Source of the DNA: an uncultured Gemmatimonadota bacterium
Lineage (GTDB): Bacteria; JAAXHH01
DNA: 64,000 nt
Reading direction: 5' to 3'
Assembly (NCBI GenBank): GCA_951812955.1
Contig: OX638340.1
Span: 448,001-512,000, forward strand
Shown here: piece after piece, positions 3,519-49,246 of the stretch
How positions within the stretch are numbered: position 1 is the stretch's first letter
How the letters are laid out: each line of letters opens with the position of its first letter
Made by a program: the position numbers and the translations under genes
Notes under the pieces: model-generated
Databases searched by the model: none
The model's input: the letters and a program-made list of their open reading frames with translations, nothing else
What the model was told of the DNA's origin: nothing

Positions 3519-5477
3519 TCAGTCGATGTAAAACTGCTCGGGGAAACTCGTCGCGGGACCCGCGATGGCCCACGGGCCGAGTATTCCGCTGTCGGGTACG
3601 TTATGGAAGTTGTTCTTCACGATGACGGGCTTGGGCGTACGAGCTACCGTGCCCAGATGAAAGGGTCCATGTTCGATGTGGATCCGCACGGCGTCCTGTA
3701 CCAGCCGATGACGGGCGTCCAGGTCCTTCTCCCGCTTGATCCGGTCGTAGATATCGAGCAGTGCGACCATGACGCCCGTGGGCGCCTCGCCCTTTTCGCC
3801 GCCCGTTTCGTACCACTTGCCCACCTTGGGATGCCAGTATTTCCCAGACGTTGGAAACACCCAGTCGGGGTAGGTGAACAGGTCCATTTCCGCCTCGCCG
3901 TGGAGATGGGCGGTGAACTCGCCGAGGTCGCGACGCAGTTTCAATTCGGCGCCGGGTGGCGTATAGACTAGGACGTCCAGTCCCAGTTCCCGCCAACCCT
4001 CGGCCACGATCAGGGCGACGTCATTCTCGTGGGCGATGTGCGCCGCCGCCGGCGCGTCCAGCACGAGGGTCAGCCGCTGGCCATCGGGACGAACCCGGTA
4101 CCCTTCGGCGTCACGGCGGGTAAGCCCCATCTCGTCGAGCAGCCTGTTCGCCATTTCCAAGTCGAATTCCGCGTCGGTAGCCTTCCACAGGTCGAAGAGC
4201 CGTGCGCCCTCCGTGTCCAGGAAATGCCAGCCTTCCTCGCTCACGGTGGCGCCCTGGGGCTCCACCAGGCCCTTGAAGGCGACGGCGTTGCATTTCTCGC
4301 GGTCGATGGCCGCGGCGAGGGCCTTCCGGAATCGCTGGTCTCGTATCAGGCCGCGGAGGACCGGGTCGTTGTCCGACCAGTTGAGGTTGATCGCGGGATC
4401 CGCGCCGGATGCACTCTCCCACAATTTGACCCGGTATCCGCCCTTTTCCCGGCTTTCCATGAAGAGCGAGAAGTCCCGCAGGTCGAGATCACGGAACTGG
4501 CAGTCCACTTCTCCGGCCAGCACCCGCAGGACCCGGATCTGAGACTCAGGGACCAGGGTCGTAACCACCCTGTCGATATAAGGCAACTGGCGCCCGTTGT
4601 CATCCACGACGTAGTAGTAGGGGTTGCGTTCCAGGATCACCCGGAATCCGCCCTTCTCGATGCGGGAGATCGTCCACGGCCACAGGGAAGGCTTTTCCGG
4701 GTTGCGCTGGGGCAGCCTGTGCTTCTCGTATAACACGAAGTCGTCCACCCCGGCGTTGTGGTCCGGATGGAACTGCTTCATGTAGTGTTCCGGCACGTTA
4801 TACTCTTCGCTCCACCAGAAGCCGGTCGCCAGCCACAGGGGCACGAGCCAGTTGGGCCCGGCGAATTTCATGACGATGGTGTAGTCGTCCGGTGTTTCCA
4901 CCTCCATGGGCTTGCCGTCCACGAGACACCACACGGGCGGCGGGTAACGGTGTCGGTCGTCGAGACACAGGTCGTACCACGCGCGGAAGGAAGCCGAAGT
5001 AAAGGGATGGCCATCGGACCACCGCACGCCCTCACGCAGTTTGAGGGTCAGCGCCGTGCCGTCCTCGTTAAACGCCCACGATTCCGCCAGGCCGGGCTCG
5101 AGGCCCGTGGTCATCCGGTTCCAACGGATCAGCGGGGCGTATCCGGCGATCATCTTCCAGGTGCCGAGGTCCGTATTGTTGTGCAATTGACGCCAGGTCC
5201 CGCCGTAGACTCCGGGACCATCGTACCCTTCGTAATCATTTTTGGCCACGAGCGGGTTGGCGGGGATCCGTTCGTGAAGGGGCGGCAGGTTGCCCTCAGC
5301 TACCCGGGCGGCCAGTTGTGGCGCTTCCAGCGACGAGCGGGCCGATGCGTCGGAAACCGGTACGTCCGATGCGGGTCCGCCGCCATTGCCGGTACAGGCC
5401 AGCAGTCCGGTCAGGGCAATAAGAGGCAGGTAATTCAGTATCTCTCTCGTTCTTCGTCTCATCCGTGACTCCAACAA
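3519..5477 (-). CDS. ABC transporter substrate-binding protein, family 5 (peptide/nickel/opine type), lipoprotein
   Basis: 652 aa. Signal peptide with the lipobox LLAC. Size and architecture match SBP_bac_5. It sits between the ATPase and permease genes. Confidence 0.85.
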   Translation of the reverse strand: MLESRMRRRTREILNYLPLIALTGLLACTGNGGGPASDVPVSDASARSSLEAPQLAARVAEGNLPPLHERIPANPLVAKNDYEGYDGPGVYGGTWRQLHNNTDLGTWKMIAGYAPLIRWNRMTTGLEPGLAESWAFNEDGTALTLKLREGVRWSDGHPFTSASFRAWYDLCLDDRHRYPPPVWCLVDGKPMEVETPDDYTIVMKFAGPNWLVPLWLATGFWWSEEYNVPEHYMKQFHPDHNAGVDDFVLYEKHRLPQRNPEKPSLWPWTISRIEKGGFRVILERNPYYYVVDDNGRQLPYIDRVVTTLVPESQIRVLRVLAGEVDCQFRDLDLRDFSLFMESREKGGYRVKLWESASGADPAINLNWSDNDPVLRGLIRDQRFRKALAAAIDREKCNAVAFKGLVEPQGATVSEEGWHFLDTEGARLFDLWKATDAEFDLEMANRLLDEMGLTRRDAEGYRVRPDGQRLTLVLDAPAAAHIAHENDVALIVAEGWRELGLDVLVYTPPGAELKLRRDLGEFTAHLHGEAEMDLFTYPDWVFPTSGKYWHPKVGKWYETGGEKGEAPTGVMVALLDIYDRIKREKDLDARHRLVQDAVRIHIEHGPFHLGTVARTPKPVIVKNNFHNVPDSGILGPWAIAGPATSFPEQFYID

Positions 5478-37413: not shown

Positions 37414-38748
37414 TCACTTCATCTGCTCCAGCCTGGTCCGGTACTTGTCATACAGGTCGGTGTGCTTGCTGCTGATATCGACCGGCCGGCCCTGGATGAA
37501 GGCCCGTTCCACCTGGGTCATGATCTCGAGGGGGTCCCCGTCGGTCACGATCAGGGTGGCGTCCTTGCCCGTCTCCAGGGAACCGAGCCTGTCTTCCACC
37601 CCGAGGATACGCGCCGGATAGAGGGTGACGGATTTCAACGCCTCTTCCCTGGGCAGGCCGTAGGCCGCCGCGGTCGCGGCGTGGTAGGGCAGGTTCCGTA
37701 CGTTCGAACCGCCGCCGCCTTCGAGCCATACCCTGCGCTCGCCGATGCAGAAATCCAGGCCGGCTTCATAGAGTTTCAGGGCATTGGTGAACGGCGCGTC
37801 ATAGGCTTCCCAACGGCGAGCGGGCAGGTAATGCACGGCGCCGATGATCACAGGGATCGCGTTTTCCTTCAAGCGGTCCGCCACCCGCCATACGTCCGCC
37901 CCGCCGACCAGGACGATCTTGAGATCTTCGGCGAGGGCCCAGTCGATGGCGGCGTGGATCTGTTTTACTTCAGATGCGTGTACGAGAACGGGAAGTTCTT
38001 TCTTAAGCACCGGGATCATCGACTCCCAGCCGAGGTCGGAGGGATGAAACGGCCCGCCGGTGCGTTCGGCCTCCTTGGCGATCATGTATGCCCTGGCTTC
38101 GCGAAAGGCGTCGCGAAGTCTGGTAAGGGCTTCCCTGCGCGCTTCGACCTGCTTCTCCCGGCTGTCCGCACCGGGAAAATCGAATATGCGGTAGGATGGC
38201 CAGCGTACGTGAAGTCCCACCGTCGATTGCAGCGTCATTTCCTCAGTGGTCCAGCCATCCAGCGCGATAAGGCCGGAAAGCCCAGAGATCAGGCCGCCAC
38301 TGGGCATGGTCAGGGCGGTCAGTATCCCGTTCGCACGGGCAACAGGGAAGTACTCGCTGTCGGGATTCACGGCGGTAACCGCGCGGACGCTCGGGGTAAC
38401 GTCCCCGATTTCCACGTTGTCCTGGGTCGCCCGCACCGAGCTGATCTCGGTCAGTCCCAGGGTCGTCGGCGCGGCGATCAGCCCGGGATACACATGTTTC
38501 CCCGTAACGTCGATGACCAGCGTGTTTTCGGGCAGGGCCAGATCGGTCCCGATACCTGTTATAACGCCGGCATCAAAGAGCACCGTGGCGCCTTCGAGGA
38601 CAGCGCCGCTCACCGTATGCACGGTTCCGCCAGTCAGGGCGATGGGACGAGCCTGCGGCCCGGACGGTTTCTGCTTGGAAGCAGCCGCCTCGTGGACCAT
38701 GGGACCGGATGCGAGACCAGCAATCAACAATACAGCCATCGTTCGCAT
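37414..38748 (-). CDS. Amidohydrolase family protein (secreted metal-dependent hydrolase)
   Basis: Amidohydrolase fold motifs (GKHVYPGLIAAPTTLGL; the C-terminal D-loop region GKDATLIVTDGDPLE). The true start is uncertain because the 5' end holds a 36-bp tandem triplication with three in-frame ATGs (38748, 38784, 38820). The track ORF extends to 38892. Confidence 0.75.
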   Translation of the reverse strand: MRTMAVLLIAGLASGPMVHEAAASKQKPSGPQARPIALTGGTVHTVSGAVLEGATVLFDAGVITGIGTDLALPENTLVIDVTGKHVYPGLIAAPTTLGLTEISSVRATQDNVEIGDVTPSVRAVTAVNPDSEYFPVARANGILTALTMPSGGLISGLSGLIALDGWTTEEMTLQSTVGLHVRWPSYRIFDFPGADSREKQVEARREALTRLRDAFREARAYMIAKEAERTGGPFHPSDLGWESMIPVLKKELPVLVHASEVKQIHAAIDWALAEDLKIVLVGGADVWRVADRLKENAIPVIIGAVHYLPARRWEAYDAPFTNALKLYEAGLDFCIGERRVWLEGGGGSNVRNLPYHAATAAAYGLPREEALKSVTLYPARILGVEDRLGSLETGKDATLIVTDGDPLEIMTQVERAFIQGRPVDISSKHTDLYDKYRTRLEQMK

Positions 38749-38838
38749 CCAACAAGCGCCTGCGAGTACAGCCATTGTCCGCCTCCAACAAGCGCCTGCG
38801 AGTACAGCCATCGTTCGATTCCAACAGGCGCTGGAAGA
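38731..38838. repeat. 36-bp tandem triplication within the 5' coding end of the amidohydrolase gene
   Basis: Three 36-nt units (tacagccatcgttcgcatccaacaagcgcctgcgag and two near-identical copies). They encode RTMAVLAGACW(R/M) three times, each with an in-frame ATG. Confidence 0.8.
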
Positions 38839-38900
38839 CTTCGCCGAACGCCGCGTCCCCTGGATTGTCCGGGGCAATATCACCATCTCCAACCTCCATT

Positions 38901-38940
38901 CGCCGGGAAACCGGCCTGTCCGCCGGGAAACCGGCCTGTC
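38901..38940. repeat. Perfect 20-nt tandem duplication, each copy forming a 5-bp stem with a GAAA/UUUC tetraloop, between two amidohydrolase genes
   Basis: cgccgggaaaccggcctgtc appears twice. GCCGG-GAAA-CCGGC is a perfect hairpin. It lies immediately downstream of the stop at 38946. Confidence 0.7.
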
Positions 38941-38945
38941 CGGTC

Positions 38946-41936: not shown

Positions 41937-42008
41937 GATTCTCCTCCTGCAGAAAAGATTCAGATACTGATTAAAACCCAAAGCAGCACAATAACTTACT
42001 AACATTCA

Positions 42009-42548
42009 CTACATTAATTGTTCAATGACTTTGTCCAGTGCCTGGTCGATCTGGGCAGCGAGTGCTTTCCCGTCCAACCGGCCGATGGGATGATCGATCT
42101 CGACGATGGGATAGCCACCGTTTCCCAGTTGTTCGGCCATCACCCGTGCGGTGTGTGTGAAGTTGGACGTACAAAGCAGTGCGGCCGGTAGTCCAAGGTG
42201 CTCGAGCATGAGGACATCGTGCATGCTGCACGCGCTGCAGGACCCTCAGTCTCCGACTCCCACGAGTGCGAAATTGCAGCGCCTTACGATAAGATCGGTC
42301 ATCTCTTCTGACAGCACGCGACTTGCGCTTTCCTTGGTGTATTCAACCGAATCCACAGGATGGGCCAGGCGAATCGTTAACTGCTCGAAGAGGCCGCGCA
42401 GGATCACGTCGGAATTGGGCTTGCCGTTTCCCACCAGCGCGGCTGTGACATGCTGAACACCCAGGGGCCGCAGCGCCATGCGAAGGGTCGATGTGTCGGC
42501 CGAGGCCGTGGGATCAACGAGGGTTACCGACATTTTCACACGCTCCAT
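42009..42548 (-). CDS. UGSC-family selenoprotein, with the in-frame UGA at 42246..42248 read as selenocysteine
   Basis: Track ORFs 42246..42548 and 42009..42224 are in the same frame, separated only by TGA plus 7 codons. The minus strand reads ...GTC GGA GAC TGA GGG TCC TGC AGC..., which is VGD-U-GSC-SACS-MHDVLML..., and U-G-S-C is the eponymous family motif. There is hairpin potential just downstream of the UGA. The likely start is the second ATG (MSVTLV..., GGAG upstream). Confidence 0.7.
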
Positions 42549-42583: not shown

Positions 42584-43603
42584 TCATTGCCTGGTGGTGC
42601 AGGTTGAGATCCAGCGCGTAACCGGCCGCGACCCTACGCCTCTGCCCGAACCCAGCCACGGCGGAATGATGGCGGAATGTCCGCCGGCCGATCCTCCAGC
42701 GAACATGATCCATATGCCATCCCGGTCCGGCGTCAGCGTGACGGGTTCTTCGGGACCCAGGTCGTCGTGCCTGCCCGTTGCCTGGATTTCACGTCCCGTG
42801 GCCGCCGTGCGTTCAAAAAGCGCTTCACGGATCATTTCACGAGTCCACCCGGCCCGGCTGAATACCGATCGGTGTTCCGGGCAGATGATGAATACGATGG
42901 CTGCGCCGGCGTAGTTGGTCGTCCGGGCGACGCGCGCAAACGAGTCGATCAGGCCATCGGGCTGGTCGTTAACGTGGTCGGCTACGGAGTGGGGTGCTTC
43001 GGCGGCAAGGACCGTGACGGCGTTTTTGTCCGGGGAAACGCCCAGTTCTTCGCCCTGGGTCGGCCATCCGGCGCAACGGGCTTCCGGCAGACAGTACGCA
43101 ATGCGTCCGGCATGGGCTATCGTCGCCCGGTCCAGGTCACCCGGCACACTGCCGACACCGTTTCGTATGACCAGGTTCAAGGCACGCCCCAGCGTCAGAT
43201 TGGACCGGTTGCCCGCACCGAGCACGGCCGTTTCCGGATTGAAACGCAACGACTCCACAACGGGACCGTGGACGATCGCCAGGGGGGCGGCGCCGCCAGT
43301 GCTGGCCGACGGTCCGACGATATTGAACGCCGGGTCCAGGATGGCCTCGACCGTGGCAAGGACGACAGGGAACAGCGAATCAGTGCATCCCGCCATAACC
43401 GCGTTCGCCGCCACCAGTTCGGCTGAGATGGATCTGTTCCGCTCAGGCACCGTGCCGATTTCACGGTCCGGTTCGATGCCGTGCGCATCGAGCATCCGAT
43501 CAATGCGATCGCGGACGGGCGGCACCACGGGAAGGCCATCCGACCAGCCCCGGTCGAAGGCGTATTCTATGGCATCAATTTCGGATTCGACCTGGTGGGC
43601 CAT
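42584..43603 (-). CDS. Hypothetical protein (unrecognised family) between the cytochrome c and the selenoprotein gene
   Basis: About 340 aa from the ATG at 43603 (the track ORF extends to 43702 but overlaps the upstream gene). No motif recognised. It starts 8 nt after the cytochrome c stop. Confidence 0.55.
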   Translation of the reverse strand: MAHQVESEIDAIEYAFDRGWSDGLPVVPPVRDRIDRMLDAHGIEPDREIGTVPERNRSISAELVAANAVMAGCTDSLFPVVLATVEAILDPAFNIVGPSASTGGAAPLAIVHGPVVESLRFNPETAVLGAGNRSNLTLGRALNLVIRNGVGSVPGDLDRATIAHAGRIAYCLPEARCAGWPTQGEELGVSPDKNAVTVLAAEAPHSVADHVNDQPDGLIDSFARVARTTNYAGAAIVFIICPEHRSVFSRAGWTREMIREALFERTAATGREIQATGRHDDLGPEEPVTLTPDRDGIWIMFAGGSAGGHSAIIPPWLGSGRGVGSRPVTRWISTCTTRQ

Positions 43604-43611
43604 TAGCAGCG

Positions 43612-44004
43612 TTACCTGCCGTAGTAGTTTTCCAGATAGGTAAGAATGGTTTCTTCGGTTTTCGAATCGAATTTCTTCAATCCCTTTTCCGCCTGCATCC
43701 AACGGATAGCATCAAGCCACTCCGCGCGGTTCGCCCGATAGGAACGGATGATCTGGGTAGGATGGCATTGGGCGCATTCCCTTTCCACGACGGGGTAGCC
43801 GTCGCCCATGATCAGCCGGGTCCGGTGGTTCAGTTCCAGGCCCGTTCGCGGGTCGAACATCGTTACGGGCTTGGCCGCCTCGGCCCTGGCATTGGCCTGT
43901 GCGACTTTCGATCGCTCCGCTTCGTAGTAGATCAGACCGACTACCAGGACATCCAGGATGATGACGAAGGCAAACTGGCCAAGTACGCGCAGAAACGAAT
44001 TCAT
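43612..44004 (-). CDS. Putative membrane-anchored mono-heme c-type cytochrome
   Basis: 130 aa. N-terminal TM helix (FAFVIILDVLVVGLIYY) and a single CAQCH heme-binding motif. AGGAG 7 nt upstream of the ATG. Confidence 0.6.
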   Translation of the reverse strand: MNSFLRVLGQFAFVIILDVLVVGLIYYEAERSKVAQANARAEAAKPVTMFDPRTGLELNHRTRLIMGDGYPVVERECAQCHPTQIIRSYRANRAEWLDAIRWMQAEKGLKKFDSKTEETILTYLENYYGR

Positions 44005-44052
44005 GGACCACTCCTGTGATTGTGCAGACAGGGATGTGCGGCTATACGGGTA

Positions 44053-46248
44053 CTAACGCGCTCTCGCGCCGATGGGGAGTCCGAACCCTATGTACCACGT
44101 TCGGCCCGCCGCCGGTTCGAAAAAGCGGTCTCCAAAGGCATTTGGGACGATGGAACCATTGTAACGGGTGTCGAACAGGTTGTTGACGCCCGCGAAGAGG
44201 ACGCCGCCGATCATGTCCCCATTATAGGTAATACCCGCACGTAAATCAAACAGCGCGTATCCCTCGTTGATGAAGTCCGATTTCGGCTTACTGCTTCCCG
44301 GTGCGGGACCGTTGAAGTCGTTGGCAAAGTACTCCGCGGTCCACTGCGCGTTCATTTCCACGAAGGCACCGCTGCAGGGGTGAGTGTATGTGATACCGGC
44401 GAACAGATGATGGGGTGGTACACCGGGCACTTCGTTGTCCGAAAGCTGGTACAGCCTGGTGTCACCTTCGACCTCCCGTTCGAGTTCAAAATCGCTGAAT
44501 TGGAACTGCATCCCCGTGTAGGCCAGCGCCATGTCGAGCGCGGGGAGTGGTGACCAGGTCAGCTTCAGTTCGATGCCCCGGTTCCGCGTCTGGCCGGCGT
44601 TCCTGAAGAAGATCTCGTCCGTCTCAGGATTGTCGATCTGGAAGGGCAAAAGCATGTTGCGGATCCCAAAGGCGAAAACGGCCGCGTCATAGGACAACCC
44701 GGCTTCCGGCAAAAATCCCTTCACACCTGCCTCGAATCCCCGCAGTTGTTCGGGTTCCAGGCCGGGATTGAATCCCCCGGCTTCCGTGGGCCGGTTGCTC
44801 AGTTCCGACGTGGTAGGGGTCTGGAAAGCCGTGGAAAAATTGCCGTAGAACGCCGTGAGGGGAGCCGGCCGGAATGCCACACCCAGCTGGGGACTGAACT
44901 GTGCCATGTTCCGTGTCCCAGAGTCGTCGGTCCGGTCGGAAAGATACCGGTCCGTCGCCTCGAACTTGAACCGGTCATAACGACCGCCGGCGGTTACGAT
45001 GATATCCGGCCACGGCGTCCATTCGAATTCCACGAAGGGTCCGATGCCGTCAACGTTTTCCTCCTGATCCAGCCTGAGATCCCCCAGCGAAAGTTCGTCG
45101 AATACGCGTCCGTCGTCCAGTGCGCCCACAAGGTCGCCGGGTATGCCCTCGTTCCCGTATTCAAGTCGTTCATCCCGCTGTATCTCCACGTCCATTCCCA
45201 AGGTCATTCTCAATCCGCCCGAACCGATTCCGGTCTGATGGCTGTAAACGCCCCGGGCTCCGGCGCCACGGCGGTCCAGGTCGATGACCCGTCCCGGGAT
45301 AGGGTTGAACAGCGAGCGCCCCATGCCGAACACCGTAATCTCTCCCTGCCTTCCTTCTGTTTCGTACCGCAAGGAAACGCCACCCTGGGCCTGCCTGACC
45401 CGCTTCGAAGCGCCCTGGCTCCGGACGAAGAACCTCGCGCCGGCGGGGTCCGTCTCGGCCGTGGCCTTGTCCAGCGAACTCGGATTGAACTGGTAAGGCG
45501 CGTTGAAGTAGTTGATGACGGTAGTCAGATGCCAGGTCTCGTTGATCGCACGTTTACCCACCACGTTGATCCCGGTCGACCGTGCGAAGGCGTGGTCGCG
45601 GTACCCATCGATCCATAACGTGTTGTAATTGACGAGAAACTGGTTGTCGCCGGCGCTGCCGGTTGCCTTGCCCTGTATACGCCGAAAACCGTGAGAGCCG
45701 GTGATGAAGCGCGGCGTGACTTGAAAAGGCCGGTCCGAAGCCTCCTCCGAGCGAATCTGGATGACCCCACCCGCCGCATTGCCGTAAAGCGATGAACTGG
45801 GTCCGCGAAGAACCTCGATCTGCCCTGCTGAAGTGAGGTCGAGGTTATTCAGCTGTGACTGGCCGTCGGCCATGGTCAGGGGAATGCCGTCCAGCACCAG
45901 TTTCACGCCACGGACGCCGAATGAAGCCCGGCTTCCCAGGCCCCGGATGCTGATCCGGTCGCCCTGGGACACGTTGTTGCGATTGTGCACGATAATGCCG
46001 GGCAGGCTGCGCACGCTCTCCTCCAGCGACAGCCCCGGTTCGGCAAGCTGAATCGCGTCCCGGTCCACCACGTCCACTGCGTAGGGTACGTCGAGCACGG
46101 GGCGGACGTACCTCGTGGCCCTCACCTCGACGGGCTGGAGGATGTAATCGACGGAAGCGTCGGTGGTATCCGGGTCGGACTGCTGCCAGGCGTTGGCGGG
46201 AAGCAGGTAGGACAGAATTACAAAACAAAAAGGAAGGAATGGTCTCAT
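44053..46248 (-). CDS. TonB-dependent receptor
   Basis: 731 aa. Signal peptide, plug-domain motifs (VVDRDAIQL..., IEVLRGPSSSLYGNAAGGVIQI), a beta-barrel, and a C-terminal aromatic residue. Confidence 0.9.
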   Translation of the reverse strand: MRPFLPFCFVILSYLLPANAWQQSDPDTTDASVDYILQPVEVRATRYVRPVLDVPYAVDVVDRDAIQLAEPGLSLEESVRSLPGIIVHNRNNVSQGDRISIRGLGSRASFGVRGVKLVLDGIPLTMADGQSQLNNLDLTSAGQIEVLRGPSSSLYGNAAGGVIQIRSEEASDRPFQVTPRFITGSHGFRRIQGKATGSAGDNQFLVNYNTLWIDGYRDHAFARSTGINVVGKRAINETWHLTTVINYFNAPYQFNPSSLDKATAETDPAGARFFVRSQGASKRVRQAQGGVSLRYETEGRQGEITVFGMGRSLFNPIPGRVIDLDRRGAGARGVYSHQTGIGSGGLRMTLGMDVEIQRDERLEYGNEGIPGDLVGALDDGRVFDELSLGDLRLDQEENVDGIGPFVEFEWTPWPDIIVTAGGRYDRFKFEATDRYLSDRTDDSGTRNMAQFSPQLGVAFRPAPLTAFYGNFSTAFQTPTTSELSNRPTEAGGFNPGLEPEQLRGFEAGVKGFLPEAGLSYDAAVFAFGIRNMLLPFQIDNPETDEIFFRNAGQTRNRGIELKLTWSPLPALDMALAYTGMQFQFSDFELEREVEGDTRLYQLSDNEVPGVPPHHLFAGITYTHPCSGAFVEMNAQWTAEYFANDFNGPAPGSSKPKSDFINEGYALFDLRAGITYNGDMIGGVLFAGVNNLFDTRYNGSIVPNAFGDRFFEPAAGRTWYIGFGLPIGARAR

Positions 46249-46305
46249 CGTGTACCGAATCTATATGGCGGGGCGGACGCTGGGCCCGCCACGCTTTGTT
46301 CACCA

Positions 46306-46935
46306 CTAATCCAATGCACGAATTTTGACATTCTTGAAACGGATTTTGCCCTGGCCGAAGGCCTGCAGCACGACGACGCCGCTGTAATGGGAGGAATCCT
46401 GGATCTTAACGGCTTCTTCCCCGTTGAGCGTGACCGTGATGTCGCGTCCGTCGGCGGTGATGACCATGGTGTTCCACTGGCCTTCGGTTTTCGGTGGCGG
46501 TTCGTATATGGCCAGCGCCACGATGCTGCCCGTGGTATATCCCGAGCTATGGGTGTCTGCGATATTGATCTCGTAGAAAGAATACTGATTCACCCTCGCC
46601 CCGGTATCGCGCGGTCCCCGGACGAATACGCCGCTGTTATGTCCGGCGTCCTGGTTGAACTGCACACTCAGCTCGAAATCGGTGAATTCGTCGTAGGTAC
46701 CGATGTATCCGGGACCCCGGCCCGTTACTTCACCGGTGAGCATGCCGTCCTCCACCGTCCAGGTTGCCGTTCCGCCCCGGTGGGTCCATCCCAGGAGGGT
46801 ATTGCCGTCGAAAAGGAGCTTCCAGCCCGCCTCTTTCTCGGCGTCGGTCAGCATGTTGTCCTGCGCGGCGGCCGTGCCGTGTATACCGACAAGGATCATG
46901 ACGGCGGCCGCCACGCTCCACATGTAGCGTTTCAT
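46306..46935 (-). CDS. DUF1080 domain protein (3-keto-disaccharide hydrolase-like), secreted
   Basis: 209 aa. Signal peptide. GWKLLFDGNTLLGW near the N-terminus and a C-terminal IRFKNVKIR region, typical of DUF1080/PF06439. Confidence 0.8.
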   Translation of the reverse strand: MKRYMWSVAAAVMILVGIHGTAAAQDNMLTDAEKEAGWKLLFDGNTLLGWTHRGGTATWTVEDGMLTGEVTGRGPGYIGTYDEFTDFELSVQFNQDAGHNSGVFVRGPRDTGARVNQYSFYEINIADTHSSGYTTGSIVALAIYEPPPKTEGQWNTMVITADGRDITVTLNGEEAVKIQDSSHYSGVVVLQAFGQGKIRFKNVKIRALD

Positions 46936-46983
46936 TGCGTATCTCCTCTGTTTTTCGTTTGCTCAGGCTCTCAGTCTTTCCGA

Positions 46984-48990
46984 CTATTCGCCTTCTTCTG
47001 CTTCGGGTTCTTCACCCAGTTTCAACGCGACCAGTTCGGCGGGATGGCCGCTGGCGCCTACGGTCATGATGATGTACTGCACGTCGTTATGCATATAGGT
47101 CATGGGCATGCCGCTCTGGGAGGCGGGCAGTTCGATTGAGGCAACGACCTCGCCCGTCGCCTTGTCGTAGGCATGGAAATACGGATCACCGCCGTAACCT
47201 TCACCGGCGAAGAGCAGCGTGCTCGTCACCAGGGAACCGATCCGGGTGGCCTTGCCGGTCTTCGGAAGATCGACACCGGCGAGCTCGGGCAGATCCTTGA
47301 TGGCCTGCGGCGTATCTCCGTTCGGCGCCATCCATACGTGGTCGCCCGAATTCATGTCGACCGCGGTGATGCGGCCCCAGGGCGGCTTGACCAGCGGAAT
47401 CTCTCCGAATACTCTCGGCGCACGCAGACCGGCCGAGAAGTAGTCCATGTCCGATTCTTCAGGATCCGGCGCACGTAACGCCAGTTTGGAAATGCTGGTG
47501 TTGGAGGGGATGAAGTTCACGCCGGAAACCGGATCCAGGCAGGTCATGTTCCAGTTGACCCCGCCATTGGCGCCCGGGATCTGAATCGTCCCGATCGTTC
47601 CATCCGGCGCCTCGGCAAGGGATGGAGGCTGGAAAAGCGGACCATACCGGTGATTCCCCATCAGGTTGATCGCTTCCTGGCGGACCGCAGGCGTGAAGTC
47701 GACCAGATCGTCCTGACTGATGCCCTGGTGTTCCCAGGGAGCCGGCTTGACAGGGATCGGCTGCGTGGGTGACGCCCGGTCGCCGGGCACGTCGCTCGCA
47801 GGAACGTCCGTCTCGGGCATATCCCAGATCGGTTCGCCGGTCACCCGGTCGAAGACATAGGAATACCCCTGCTTGGTGTTCTGGATAACGATCTTCCGAG
47901 CCTCGCCGTCGATCATTACGTCGGCCAGGATCGGCGCGGCGGGGTTGTCGTAATCCCAGATGTCATGGTGGACGATCTGGAAGTGCCAGATCTTCTCGCC
48001 GGTGTTGTAATCGACGGCCACCAGGCTGTTAGCGAACAGGTTGTCACCCAGGCGGTGTCCACCGTAATAGTCGTTCGTCGGCGCTTCGATGGGCAGATAC
48101 GCATAGCCCAGTTCCTCGTCGACTGAAATGGAGGTCCACACGCCGGCGTTCCCGGTATAGGACTTCGAATTCTGCTCCCAGGTTTCGGATCCTTCCTCGC
48201 CCTCCTCCGGTATGACCTTGAACTTCCAGACGATCGCGCCGGTTCGGGCGTCGTAGGCCACGACGTCACCAGGTGAATTGGTCATCGACCTTGGCCGGAA
48301 TCCCGCGGCGAGCGCGGGCGGAACGAGAACGAGATCCCCCACGACCGTCGCGGGAGACGTATTCGCCAGGTTGCCCACCGGGCTGACGTTTTCCGAATTT
48401 CGCCAGCCTTCCATCATGTCGACGACGCCGTTATTGCCGAAACCGGACACGGGGATCCCCGTATCAGCGTCTAGGGCTACCAGGTAGAATCCCCGGGTGA
48501 TCAGGATGACGCGGTTGTCGCCCTGGCCGTCGGTCCAGAAGGAGACGCCGCGGCCCGAATTGCGTCGGGGAGCCGAAGCCCAGCGTTCTTCGTCCTCGAC
48601 CGGCCGGTAGGTCCACATCGTCTCGCCCGTTTCAGGCTCGATGGCCATGGCACTGCGCCGCGTGCCCGCCGTGGAATACAGCATGCCGTCGACATAGATC
48701 GGCACAGGCTGCGCATAGAACTCGGGCCGGGGGCCGAAGTTGTCTTGTTTCCACGTCCAGGCGACCTCGAGACGGCCCACATTATCCGCGTTGACCTGAT
48801 CCAGCGGAGAATACCGCGTGTAGGCCAGGTCGCGACCGAGCATGCGCCATTCGCTGTCGGACTGCTCAACGGATATAATCCTGCCCGGCTGTCTCTCGAC
48901 CGCGGGTTCGCACGCTGAAACTACCAGGAACGCCAGAACCAGGCCAATCGCCGGGGGCGTCCATCGACACATACGGAAATATCGGATCAT
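46984..48990 (-). CDS. PQQ-dependent dehydrogenase (quinoprotein alcohol/sugar dehydrogenase family), lipoprotein
   Basis: Start at MIRYFRMCRWTPPAIGLVLAFLVVSAC (GGGAGG upstream). Eight-bladed PQQ propeller family features (the LEVAWTW/W-motif repeats, the ...DADTG... region). Confidence 0.8.
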   Translation of the reverse strand: MIRYFRMCRWTPPAIGLVLAFLVVSACEPAVERQPGRIISVEQSDSEWRMLGRDLAYTRYSPLDQVNADNVGRLEVAWTWKQDNFGPRPEFYAQPVPIYVDGMLYSTAGTRRSAMAIEPETGETMWTYRPVEDEERWASAPRRNSGRGVSFWTDGQGDNRVILITRGFYLVALDADTGIPVSGFGNNGVVDMMEGWRNSENVSPVGNLANTSPATVVGDLVLVPPALAAGFRPRSMTNSPGDVVAYDARTGAIVWKFKVIPEEGEEGSETWEQNSKSYTGNAGVWTSISVDEELGYAYLPIEAPTNDYYGGHRLGDNLFANSLVAVDYNTGEKIWHFQIVHHDIWDYDNPAAPILADVMIDGEARKIVIQNTKQGYSYVFDRVTGEPIWDMPETDVPASDVPGDRASPTQPIPVKPAPWEHQGISQDDLVDFTPAVRQEAINLMGNHRYGPLFQPPSLAEAPDGTIGTIQIPGANGGVNWNMTCLDPVSGVNFIPSNTSISKLALRAPDPEESDMDYFSAGLRAPRVFGEIPLVKPPWGRITAVDMNSGDHVWMAPNGDTPQAIKDLPELAGVDLPKTGKATRIGSLVTSTLLFAGEGYGGDPYFHAYDKATGEVVASIELPASQSGMPMTYMHNDVQYIIMTVGASGHPAELVALKLGEEPEAEEGE

Positions 48991-49246
48991 TACGCACTGC
49001 CTCCCATGATACAAATTAAATGATGCCGCGAATCGCATGGAAACCTGTCCGGATACGGGGATACCGGATCACACAGCAACAGGTCTGGCCTGCATGCCTT
49101 GGATTCCACGAATGCTCTGCAATTCAAACGCGATTTAACGCAAGTATCTCACCAATGTATTTGTCCGGATTACTGATGTAAAGCCCTTTGTGTCTGGTAC
49201 CGCCCGACGGCGCCGGTCTCGAAGGTGGTTTCACCGCGCAGGCGTC

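Follow-up and report, generated by a model that had tools for sequence, protein, structure and literature searches.

The analysed window is a stretch of 64,000 nucleotides (nt) from an uncultured Gemmatimonadota bacterium (assembly GCA_951812955.1, contig OX638340.1, positions 448,001 to 512,000). It contains three consecutive genes, which encode a probable c-type cytochrome of 130 amino acids (aa), a 339-aa protein of an uncharacterised family and a selenoprotein of the UGSC family (Table 1). Our analysis supports a functional tie between the 339-aa protein and UGSC, since 72 of 80 loci have a UGSC gene immediately downstream of the 339-aa gene and in the same orientation, a reciprocal search starting from UGSC leads back to the same partner, and natural fusions of the two proteins exist in both orders. 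We think it probable, without attaching great confidence to it, that the pair is a cytoplasmic two-subunit reductase, in which selenocysteine (Sec) 101 and Cys104 of UGSC, together with Cys73 of the 339-aa protein, would make up a relay recharged by thioredoxin-type systems and acting on a small, possibly anionic substrate. The cytochrome is assigned to an envelope block situated upstream because of the company its gene keeps, the compartment signals of the encoded proteins and its separability from the pair. The function of UGSC thus becomes testable: it has a near-constant specific partner, this partner shows alternative wiring of the thioredoxin type, and its structure is confidently predicted while having no solved relative.

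All three genes and the block upstream of them are on the minus strand, a point that the preliminary description had not mentioned. The preliminary description of this stretch had recorded gaps of 8 and 35 nt within the row, and the coordinates agree with both: the cytochrome gene ends with TAA at 43612-43614, the 339-aa open reading frame (ORF) starts with ATG at 43603, and 35 nt separate this ORF from that of UGSC. The single transmembrane helix, the single CAQCH site and the ribosome-binding site attributed there to the 130-aa protein were likewise seen, as was the UGSC selenoprotein next in the row, with its in-frame TGA. The product of the middle ORF had been given as 340 aa instead of 339. 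It was also said to have no recognisable motifs, which is true as far as matches to Pfam, NCBIfam and PDB sequences are concerned, but the family possesses invariant motifs of its own. As to whether its homologs travel with UGSC genes, which the preliminary description had left to be checked, they do; and the structure prediction proposed in it yielded a confident model.

Pairing of the 339-aa protein with UGSC

The counts of pair loci refer to the 80 best species-level loci of a scan (one genome per species) that gave at least 598 confirmed loci; UGSC and the cytochrome were placed in those 80 loci by tblastn. The spacing between the two genes is short, with a median of about 65 nt between alignment ends, and in several pairs the stop and start codons overlap. 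The Sec position is encoded by TGA in 71 of the 72 downstream UGSC genes and is occupied by Cys in one. The carriers of the pair belong to Chloroflexota/Dehalococcoidia, Methylomirabilota, Acidobacteriota, Actinomycetota, Myxococcota and Nitrospirales, as well as to Alpha-, Beta-, Gamma- and Deltaproteobacteria. In the reciprocal direction, a search for full-length UGSC homologs returned six proteins only, all of the Cys type, since Sec-containing UGSC is broken in two by gene callers. Cys-type UGSC is followed by a gene whose start is overlapped by the UGSC stop codon and whose product, 350-355 aa long, belongs to the 339-aa family, with 32-34% identity and E about 1e-45. One such Cys-type pair occupies positions 4001-5619 of L096. 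All-against-all clustering of every ORF in the 80 loci revealed no third recurrent gene. Short-chain dehydrogenases/reductases occur in 11 and pyrroloquinoline quinone (PQQ) dehydrogenases in 5 of them, which is approximately the chance level for such common families.

Several peculiarities of individual loci deserve mention. Some loci of Acidobacteriota and Rokubacteria (L027, L030, L081, also L060 and L082) harbor two paralogous pairs within a few kb, and in the second of them UGSC is located upstream of its partner. PQQ-dependent dehydrogenases 27-47% identical to that of the window are found a few kb from the pair in L037, L046, L049 and L066; this nearness, in four unrelated genomes of Alphaproteobacteria and Acidobacteriota, is a slight enrichment that chance may have produced. 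In several Chloroflexota and Actinomycetota (L001-L003, L096-L100) the pair is flanked by ATP-binding cassette (ABC) uptake systems with binding proteins of the NMT1 or Dpp/Opp type, and for this reason the substrate of the pair may be an imported small molecule. In L005 a 339-aa homolog lacking UGSC adjoins a rhodanese gene, and a few kb from it (429-1544 of this locus) a DUF3179 gene was called as two pieces of 104 and 259 aa. DUF3179 is, according to a 2026 review, another selenoprotein family with an in-frame UGA, for which such split calling is typical.

The UGSC selenoprotein

The match of the window protein to PF24696 extends over residues 10-178 and places it in this family; the model NF041046 (UGSC_fam) gave 9e-35 and 119.8 bits, with a cutoff of 125 bits. 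When 15 UGSC sequences are aligned, Asp100, Sec101, Gly102, Ser103 and Cys104 prove invariant, and Cys107 and Ser108 nearly so. The Sec codon was examined by comparing 71 sequences of UGA-type UGSC genes located downstream of the 339-aa gene. In the RNAalifold consensus, the stem of a hairpin resembling a selenocysteine insertion sequence (SECIS) is possible in 70 of the 71 sequences, and a few of them alter both sides of a base pair with the pairing kept. Synonymous codon choice is also strongly biased, Ser being encoded by AGT in 58 and NCG being present in 70 of the 71. Folding of the UGA region of the window as a single sequence was not significant (z = 0.4), and the hairpin is seen only in the 71-sequence comparison. 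Judging from these data, the UGA of the window is predicted to be a genuine Sec codon with a SECIS-type hairpin.

The remote relations of UGSC were sought among the selenoprotein B models of glycine and D-proline reductases. TIGR01917 (GrdB) was matched by 9 of the 15 UGSC sequences, with a best E-value of 6e-5, and others matched TIGR01918, GrdF, GrdH or PrdB. In the window protein, residues 75-173, which include Sec101, align to positions 320-411 of the GrdB model with 16.4 bits against a cutoff of 602. Membership of UGSC in the GrdB/PrdB families (TIGR01917, TIGR01918, TIGR04483) was rejected, as the scores are far below the cutoffs and only about 90 model positions are matched. On these profile matches, UGSC appears to be a distant, shortened relative of selenoprotein B.

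In the literature UGSC is described as a major, abundant aquatic selenoprotein of unknown function, and the 2026 review still lists it as functionally uncharacterised. Hyphomonas neptunium, which can be cultured, is reported to be among the organisms encoding it (PMC1976440). A "UGSC/Unknown_1 fusion", where Unknown_1 is an unnamed conserved domain, was reported by Zhang and Gladyshev (2008; PMC2398784), and it resembles what we observe, UGSC being fused to the 339-aa family here too. Unknown_1 is likely to be the 339-aa family; none of the motifs sought was found in the supplementary sequence files of that study. The near-universal pairing, the fusions to other redox modules and a structural model are absent from the literature on UGSC that we searched.

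The 339-aa protein family

A word-indexed search retrieved 642 relatives of the 339-aa protein, ranging from 96% to about 35% identity. A conservation profile was built from 78 diverse members (A1) drawn from these relatives, and its comparison with 1.84 billion cluster representatives gave 7,891 matches at E<=1e-3, 5,190 at E<=1e-10 and 2,404 at E<=1e-30. The possibility, raised in the preliminary description, that the frame is non-conserved or non-coding is at variance with these numbers. The window protein itself had no match in Pfam or NCBIfam, and a single-sequence search of the PDB was empty; a Pfam scan of the 78 members gave matches limited to fused thioredoxin-type extensions. The profile search of PDB sequences returned nothing apart from designed triosephosphate isomerase (TIM) barrels, which we rejected as spurious.

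The family is defined by three invariant motifs, GW[ST]DGLPVVPP, NAVMAGC, which ends in Cys73, and RANATIGRA. Among the 78 members the invariant residues of the first are Gly19, Asp22, Gly23 and Pro25, those of the second Ala71, Gly72 and Cys73, and those of the third Arg133, Asn135 and Arg140; Asp158, Gly166, Glu174, Trp180, Gly303 and Ser310 are invariant too. Cys73 is the lone invariant Cys of the family, and in the tandem-duplicated P0145 the AGC motif containing it is present in both halves. With the family alignment, AlphaFold2 produced a confident alpha/beta model (pLDDT 90.5, pTM 0.91; predicted local distance difference test and template modelling scores, respectively). The top Foldseek matches to this model were cyclic amide hydrolases of the Toblerone fold (cyanuric acid hydrolase, barbiturase), which are of similar length, but the superposition score did not reach significance and the assignment was rejected. 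Nor is the 339-aa protein a thioredoxin-fold oxidoreductase, as it has one invariant Cys and no CxxC; thioredoxin-type Pfam matches in the family lie only within N-terminal fused extensions of some homologs.

Fusions and alternative redox partners

In P0149, P0156 and P0186 the 339-aa domain is followed by a C-terminal UGSC, and the gene caller stops at the Sec codon. The opposite order, with UGSC at the N-terminus, is found in P0215 (with DCGSC) and P0180, and P0161, P0162 and P0165 represent post-Sec halves of such proteins. Besides UGSC, the 339-aa domain is fused to thioredoxin-fold domains of the AhpC/TSA or Redoxin families (P0105, P0172, P0194, P0195, P0204), to a Pyr_redox_2 domain that resembles thioredoxin reductase and contains CAVC (P0281) and to the catalytic beta chain of ferredoxin:thioredoxin reductase (P0193, 2e-21), while in L071 a separate gene for a 128-aa thioredoxin-like protein with CPTC takes the place of UGSC. 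All the modules found fused to the 339-aa domain are cytoplasmic thiol/disulfide redox modules. It follows, as the simplest reading, that the 339-aa protein would be the terminal, substrate-facing part of a thiol/selenol relay, with Cys73 as its redox or nucleophilic residue.

The probable cytochrome and the envelope block

The 130-aa ORF begins MNSFLRVLGQFAFVIILDVLVVGLIYY and contains CAQCH once. Its relatives are few, 24 in number, and form a narrow clade. In all 16 aligned homologs, down to 57% identity, the CxxCH site (Cys77, Cys80, His81), Met103 and the N-terminal helix are invariant, so that the site on which the preliminary description had relied does not disappear in homologs. The hydrophobic N-terminal segment (about residues 8-28) is conserved and lies within a predicted single long helix (2-44), which is what an exported, membrane-anchored protein should have; the haem domain is predicted to face the periplasm. 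Searches of PDB sequences, by sequence or by profile, returned nothing for this protein. We regard it as a probable monohaem c-type cytochrome.

The gene order PQQ dehydrogenase, DUF1080 protein, TonB receptor, cytochrome, 339-aa protein, UGSC is common to the window, L007 and L016, and it is kept in L009-L011 as well, with the dehydrogenase reduced to a remnant. Throughout the clade of the window the TonB receptor gene immediately precedes that of the cytochrome. The block from the PQQ dehydrogenase to the cytochrome is followed in L014 and L015 by a GFO/IDH/MocA oxidoreductase, and the 339-aa/UGSC pair is missing there; the cytochrome of L012 and L013, which are more distant, is found among aldolase and GFO/IDH/MocA genes. 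Conversely, the pair occurs without the cytochrome in L006, whose 339-aa protein is 60% identical to that of the window, and in the Chloroflexota loci L001-L004. Altogether, 2 of the 80 pair loci contain the cytochrome (L016 and L017), both from the window's own clade.

The PQQ dehydrogenase, the DUF1080 protein and the TonB receptor begin with signal or lipoprotein-type sequences, in contrast to the 339-aa protein and UGSC, in which the absence of an export signal was judged by reading the sequences. Haem of the c type is attached outside the cytoplasmic membrane. Direct electron transfer between the cytochrome and the 339-aa protein or UGSC is therefore topologically unlikely, the haem domain being periplasmic and the two other proteins lacking an export signal. 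The cytochrome probably serves the periplasmic PQQ dehydrogenase as electron acceptor, a donor-acceptor relation suggested by synteny only. The arrangement resembles the methanol dehydrogenase/cytochrome cL and ethanol dehydrogenase/cytochrome c550 systems in that a PQQ dehydrogenase free of haem and a small monohaem cytochrome are encoded in one block on one strand. It differs from them in that the cytochrome is membrane-anchored rather than soluble and is separated from the dehydrogenase by the DUF1080 and TonB receptor genes. Unlike cytochromes cL and c550 and SorB, the subunit of the sulfite dehydrogenase SorAB, it also has no significant match to a cytochrome family of Pfam or to a PDB sequence.

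Two further observations concern this block. In L009-L011 (approximately 3610-3789) a 45-aa ORF shares 75% identity with the C-terminal 60 residues of the PQQ dehydrogenase of the window and looks like the remnant of a deleted dehydrogenase gene heading the conserved block of DUF1080, TonB receptor and cytochrome genes. The best NCBIfam match of the TonB receptor is the PQQ importer PqqU (NF041535, 1.5e-91, 308 bits against a cutoff of 1200), and this PqqU-like receptor is encoded two genes from the PQQ-dependent dehydrogenase (44053-49038). Together they may constitute a cassette for cofactor uptake plus the enzyme using it, in a host that perhaps does not synthesize PQQ.

Proposed function of the pair and alternative explanations

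The explanation that we favour is that two independent modules, an envelope one and then a cytoplasmic one, are transcribed in a row. The first would comprise the PQQ dehydrogenase, the DUF1080 protein, the TonB receptor and the anchored cytochrome, whose periplasm-facing haem domain would most likely supply the respiratory chain with electrons taken from the dehydrogenase or from neighbouring sugar oxidoreductases of the periplasm. In the second, the 339-aa protein and UGSC would associate physically into a dedicated two-subunit thiol/selenol reductase. Sec101 and Cys104 of UGSC (Sec-x-x-Cys) would cycle between the selenol/thiol and selenenylsulfide states, and UGSC would either deliver reducing power to Cys73 or resolve a covalent intermediate formed on it. 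The 339-aa protein would be the substrate-binding catalytic subunit, and the invariance of Arg133, Arg140, Asn135, Asp22, Asp158 and Glu174 leads us to suppose that the small substrate is probably anionic. The pair would be recharged from NAD(P)H or ferredoxin via thioredoxin-type reductases. The proposal of a thioredoxin-dependent reductase that has two subunits and employs Cys73 and Sec101 is a concrete biochemical one, and it concerns a defined pair of proteins.

A number of observations weigh against this explanation or some part of it. As regards the pair, 8 of the 80 loci have no detectable adjacent UGSC (among these exceptions, one contig is too short for UGSC and another has UGSC nearby on the opposite strand). 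Cys73 is predicted to lie in a short turn between two helices, and the fold has no solved relative, so that no chemistry can be derived from homology. As regards the cytochrome, it has no Pfam match at E<=1, and its single family match, to SorB, spans the entire haem domain with E=0.0044 and 17 bits against a cutoff of 93. Its AlphaFold2 model is of low confidence (pLDDT 68), and a Foldseek search with it was empty. Finally, the cytochrome and 339-aa genes stay adjacent, at 8-20 nt, down to about 58-64% identity of the cytochrome (L007, L009, L016, L017), and a clade-specific functional link between them is conceivable.

A bolder version of the same proposal, which we put forward tentatively, as possible rather than probable, is that the 339-aa family represents the catalytic subunit, with a new fold, of a third, widespread class of selenoprotein-B-type reductases. 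Such enzymes, working in aerobic bacteria of soil and water, would use Sec (in UGSC), Cys73 and electrons of the thioredoxin system to reduce a so far unrecognised small molecule. If true, this would provide a function for one of the most abundant families of environmental selenoproteins.

The comparison with glycine/sarcosine/betaine and D-proline reductases is instructive in this respect. In these enzymes selenoprotein B acts together with a larger subunit that binds the substrate (GrdE or PrdA), and its Se-S centre, once oxidised, is returned to the reduced state by dithiols or by the thioredoxin system. Like the GrdB/GrdE and PrdB/PrdA systems, the pair consists of a gene for a UxxC selenoprotein beside a gene for a larger Cys-bearing partner; the weak but consistent matches of UGSC to the GrdB, GrdF, GrdH and PrdB models point the same way, and the link to the thioredoxin system is present in the 339-aa family in the form of domain fusions. 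On the other hand, selenoprotein B has about 240-440 aa and UGSC about 180, no similarity of the 339-aa protein to GrdE or PrdA is detectable, and no homologs of GrdA, GrdC and GrdD recur near the pair in the 80 loci. Most hosts of the pair, unlike those of glycine and D-proline reductase systems, are aerobic members of the Chloroflexota, Acidobacteriota, Actinomycetota and Proteobacteria.

By analogy, the pair could even be a true counterpart of protein B and its partner, the 339-aa protein being a self-cleaving pyruvoyl proprotein of the GrdE/PrdA kind, cut at Gly72-Cys73, which would form a Schiff base with an amine substrate whose C-N bond the Sec of UGSC would cleave reductively. The homology of UGSC to selenoprotein B, the invariance of Gly72-Cys73 and the NMT1- or Dpp-type ABC uptake systems adjoining some loci would suit such a mechanism. 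The trxA and trxB genes present in grd operons would likewise have their parallel in the thioredoxin and thioredoxin-reductase fusions. We nevertheless consider it unlikely. Not one of the 78 members matched the Gly_reductase (GrdE/PrdA) family of Pfam at E<=1, and the window protein had no NCBIfam match to it. Moreover, pyruvoyl cleavage sites are known from a strand-turn context, which is not that predicted for Cys73, and the hosts belong mostly to aerobic soil and water lineages, not to Stickland fermenters.

We also give a low probability to the explanation that catalysis resides in UGSC and that the 339-aa protein is its protein substrate, its scaffold or a maturation or repair factor, for example one holding or regenerating the selenol. 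The strict 1:1 pairing and the fusions, the single invariant Cys and the lack of an enzyme-family match could all be understood in this way. Since, however, the 339-aa family also occurs with thioredoxin-fold, thioredoxin-reductase-like or ferredoxin:thioredoxin-reductase partners, and also without UGSC, its role should be independent of Sec, and it has numerous invariant polar residues (Asp, Arg, Asn, Glu, His) that resemble an active site.

As for the short electron-transfer chain suggested in the preliminary description, in which the membrane cytochrome would draw electrons from the quinol pool or respiratory chain and send them by way of the 339-aa protein to UGSC, or the reverse, it accords with the redox-type motifs of all three proteins and with the close spacing and same-strand order kept in L007, L009-L011, L016 and L017, but we find it very improbable, given that 78 of the 80 pair loci have no cytochrome, that L014 and L015 have the cytochrome block without the pair, that the alternative donors fused to the 339-aa domain are disulfide reductases of the cytoplasm which depend on NAD(P)H or ferredoxin, and that c-type haem domains are, by their established biogenesis, periplasmic whereas the pair carries no export signals. 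What stands of that suggestion is the redox tie between the 339-aa protein and UGSC, seen in their pairing and fusions; membership of the cytochrome does not. The tight spacing of the cytochrome gene reflects, in our opinion, operon packing of an envelope module beside a cytoplasmic one. The middle protein, described earlier as having no assignable role, can now be regarded, from its pairing with UGSC and its fusions, as taking part in a thiol/selenol redox relay, either as a partner or as its terminal subunit.

Other features of the window

Table 1. Positions of the genes and sequence elements discussed in the text (numbering of the window)
Feature	Position	Strand	Remarks
130-aa ORF, probable membrane-anchored monohaem c-type cytochrome	43612-44004	minus	CAQCH at residues 77-81; Met103
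Ribosome-binding site AGGAG	44010-44014	minus	5 nt ahead of the cytochrome ATG
339-aa protein of a large uncharacterised family, conserved partner of UGSC	42584-43603	minus	Invariant Cys73 in NAVMAGC
UGSC-family selenoprotein, 179 aa when read through UGA	42009-42548	minus	Sec101-Gly-Ser-Cys104, then Cys107; PF24696, 8e-42
UGA (TGA), predicted Sec codon	42246-42248	minus	Motif GVGD-U-GSCSAC; TGA at the homologous position in relatives
SECIS-like 5-bp hairpin CGUGC-AGCAU-GCACG	42218-42232	minus	16 nt past the U of UGA
TonB-dependent outer-membrane receptor	44053-46248	minus	Plug and TonB barrel domains; synteny
Secreted DUF1080 / 3-keto-disaccharide-hydrolase-like protein	46306-46935	minus	PF06439, 3e-36; synteny
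PQQ-dependent dehydrogenase without a cytochrome domain of its own	46984-49038	minus	PF01011, 2e-175, residues 64-656 of 684

A scan of the window for promoters and terminators gave sites no more numerous than in shuffled sequence, and the boundaries of the operons are not defined by it. Downstream of UGSC there are two genes of large amidohydrolases. In the longest-ORF reading, the first of them (1019 aa) begins 3 nt beyond the UGSC stop codon (42005-42009), and this short distance suggests that the two genes are co-transcribed in the genome of the window. The amidohydrolase neighbour is kept in L016 and not in L007, where TerB-type genes are found instead. Between the two amidohydrolase genes there are two tandem repeats, one of 36 nt in 2.8 copies (38731-38831, 87% matches) and one of 20 nt in 2.1 copies (38901-38942, 100%); the former duplicates an N-terminal coding segment of the MAVLAGACW type in the ORF 37414-38892.

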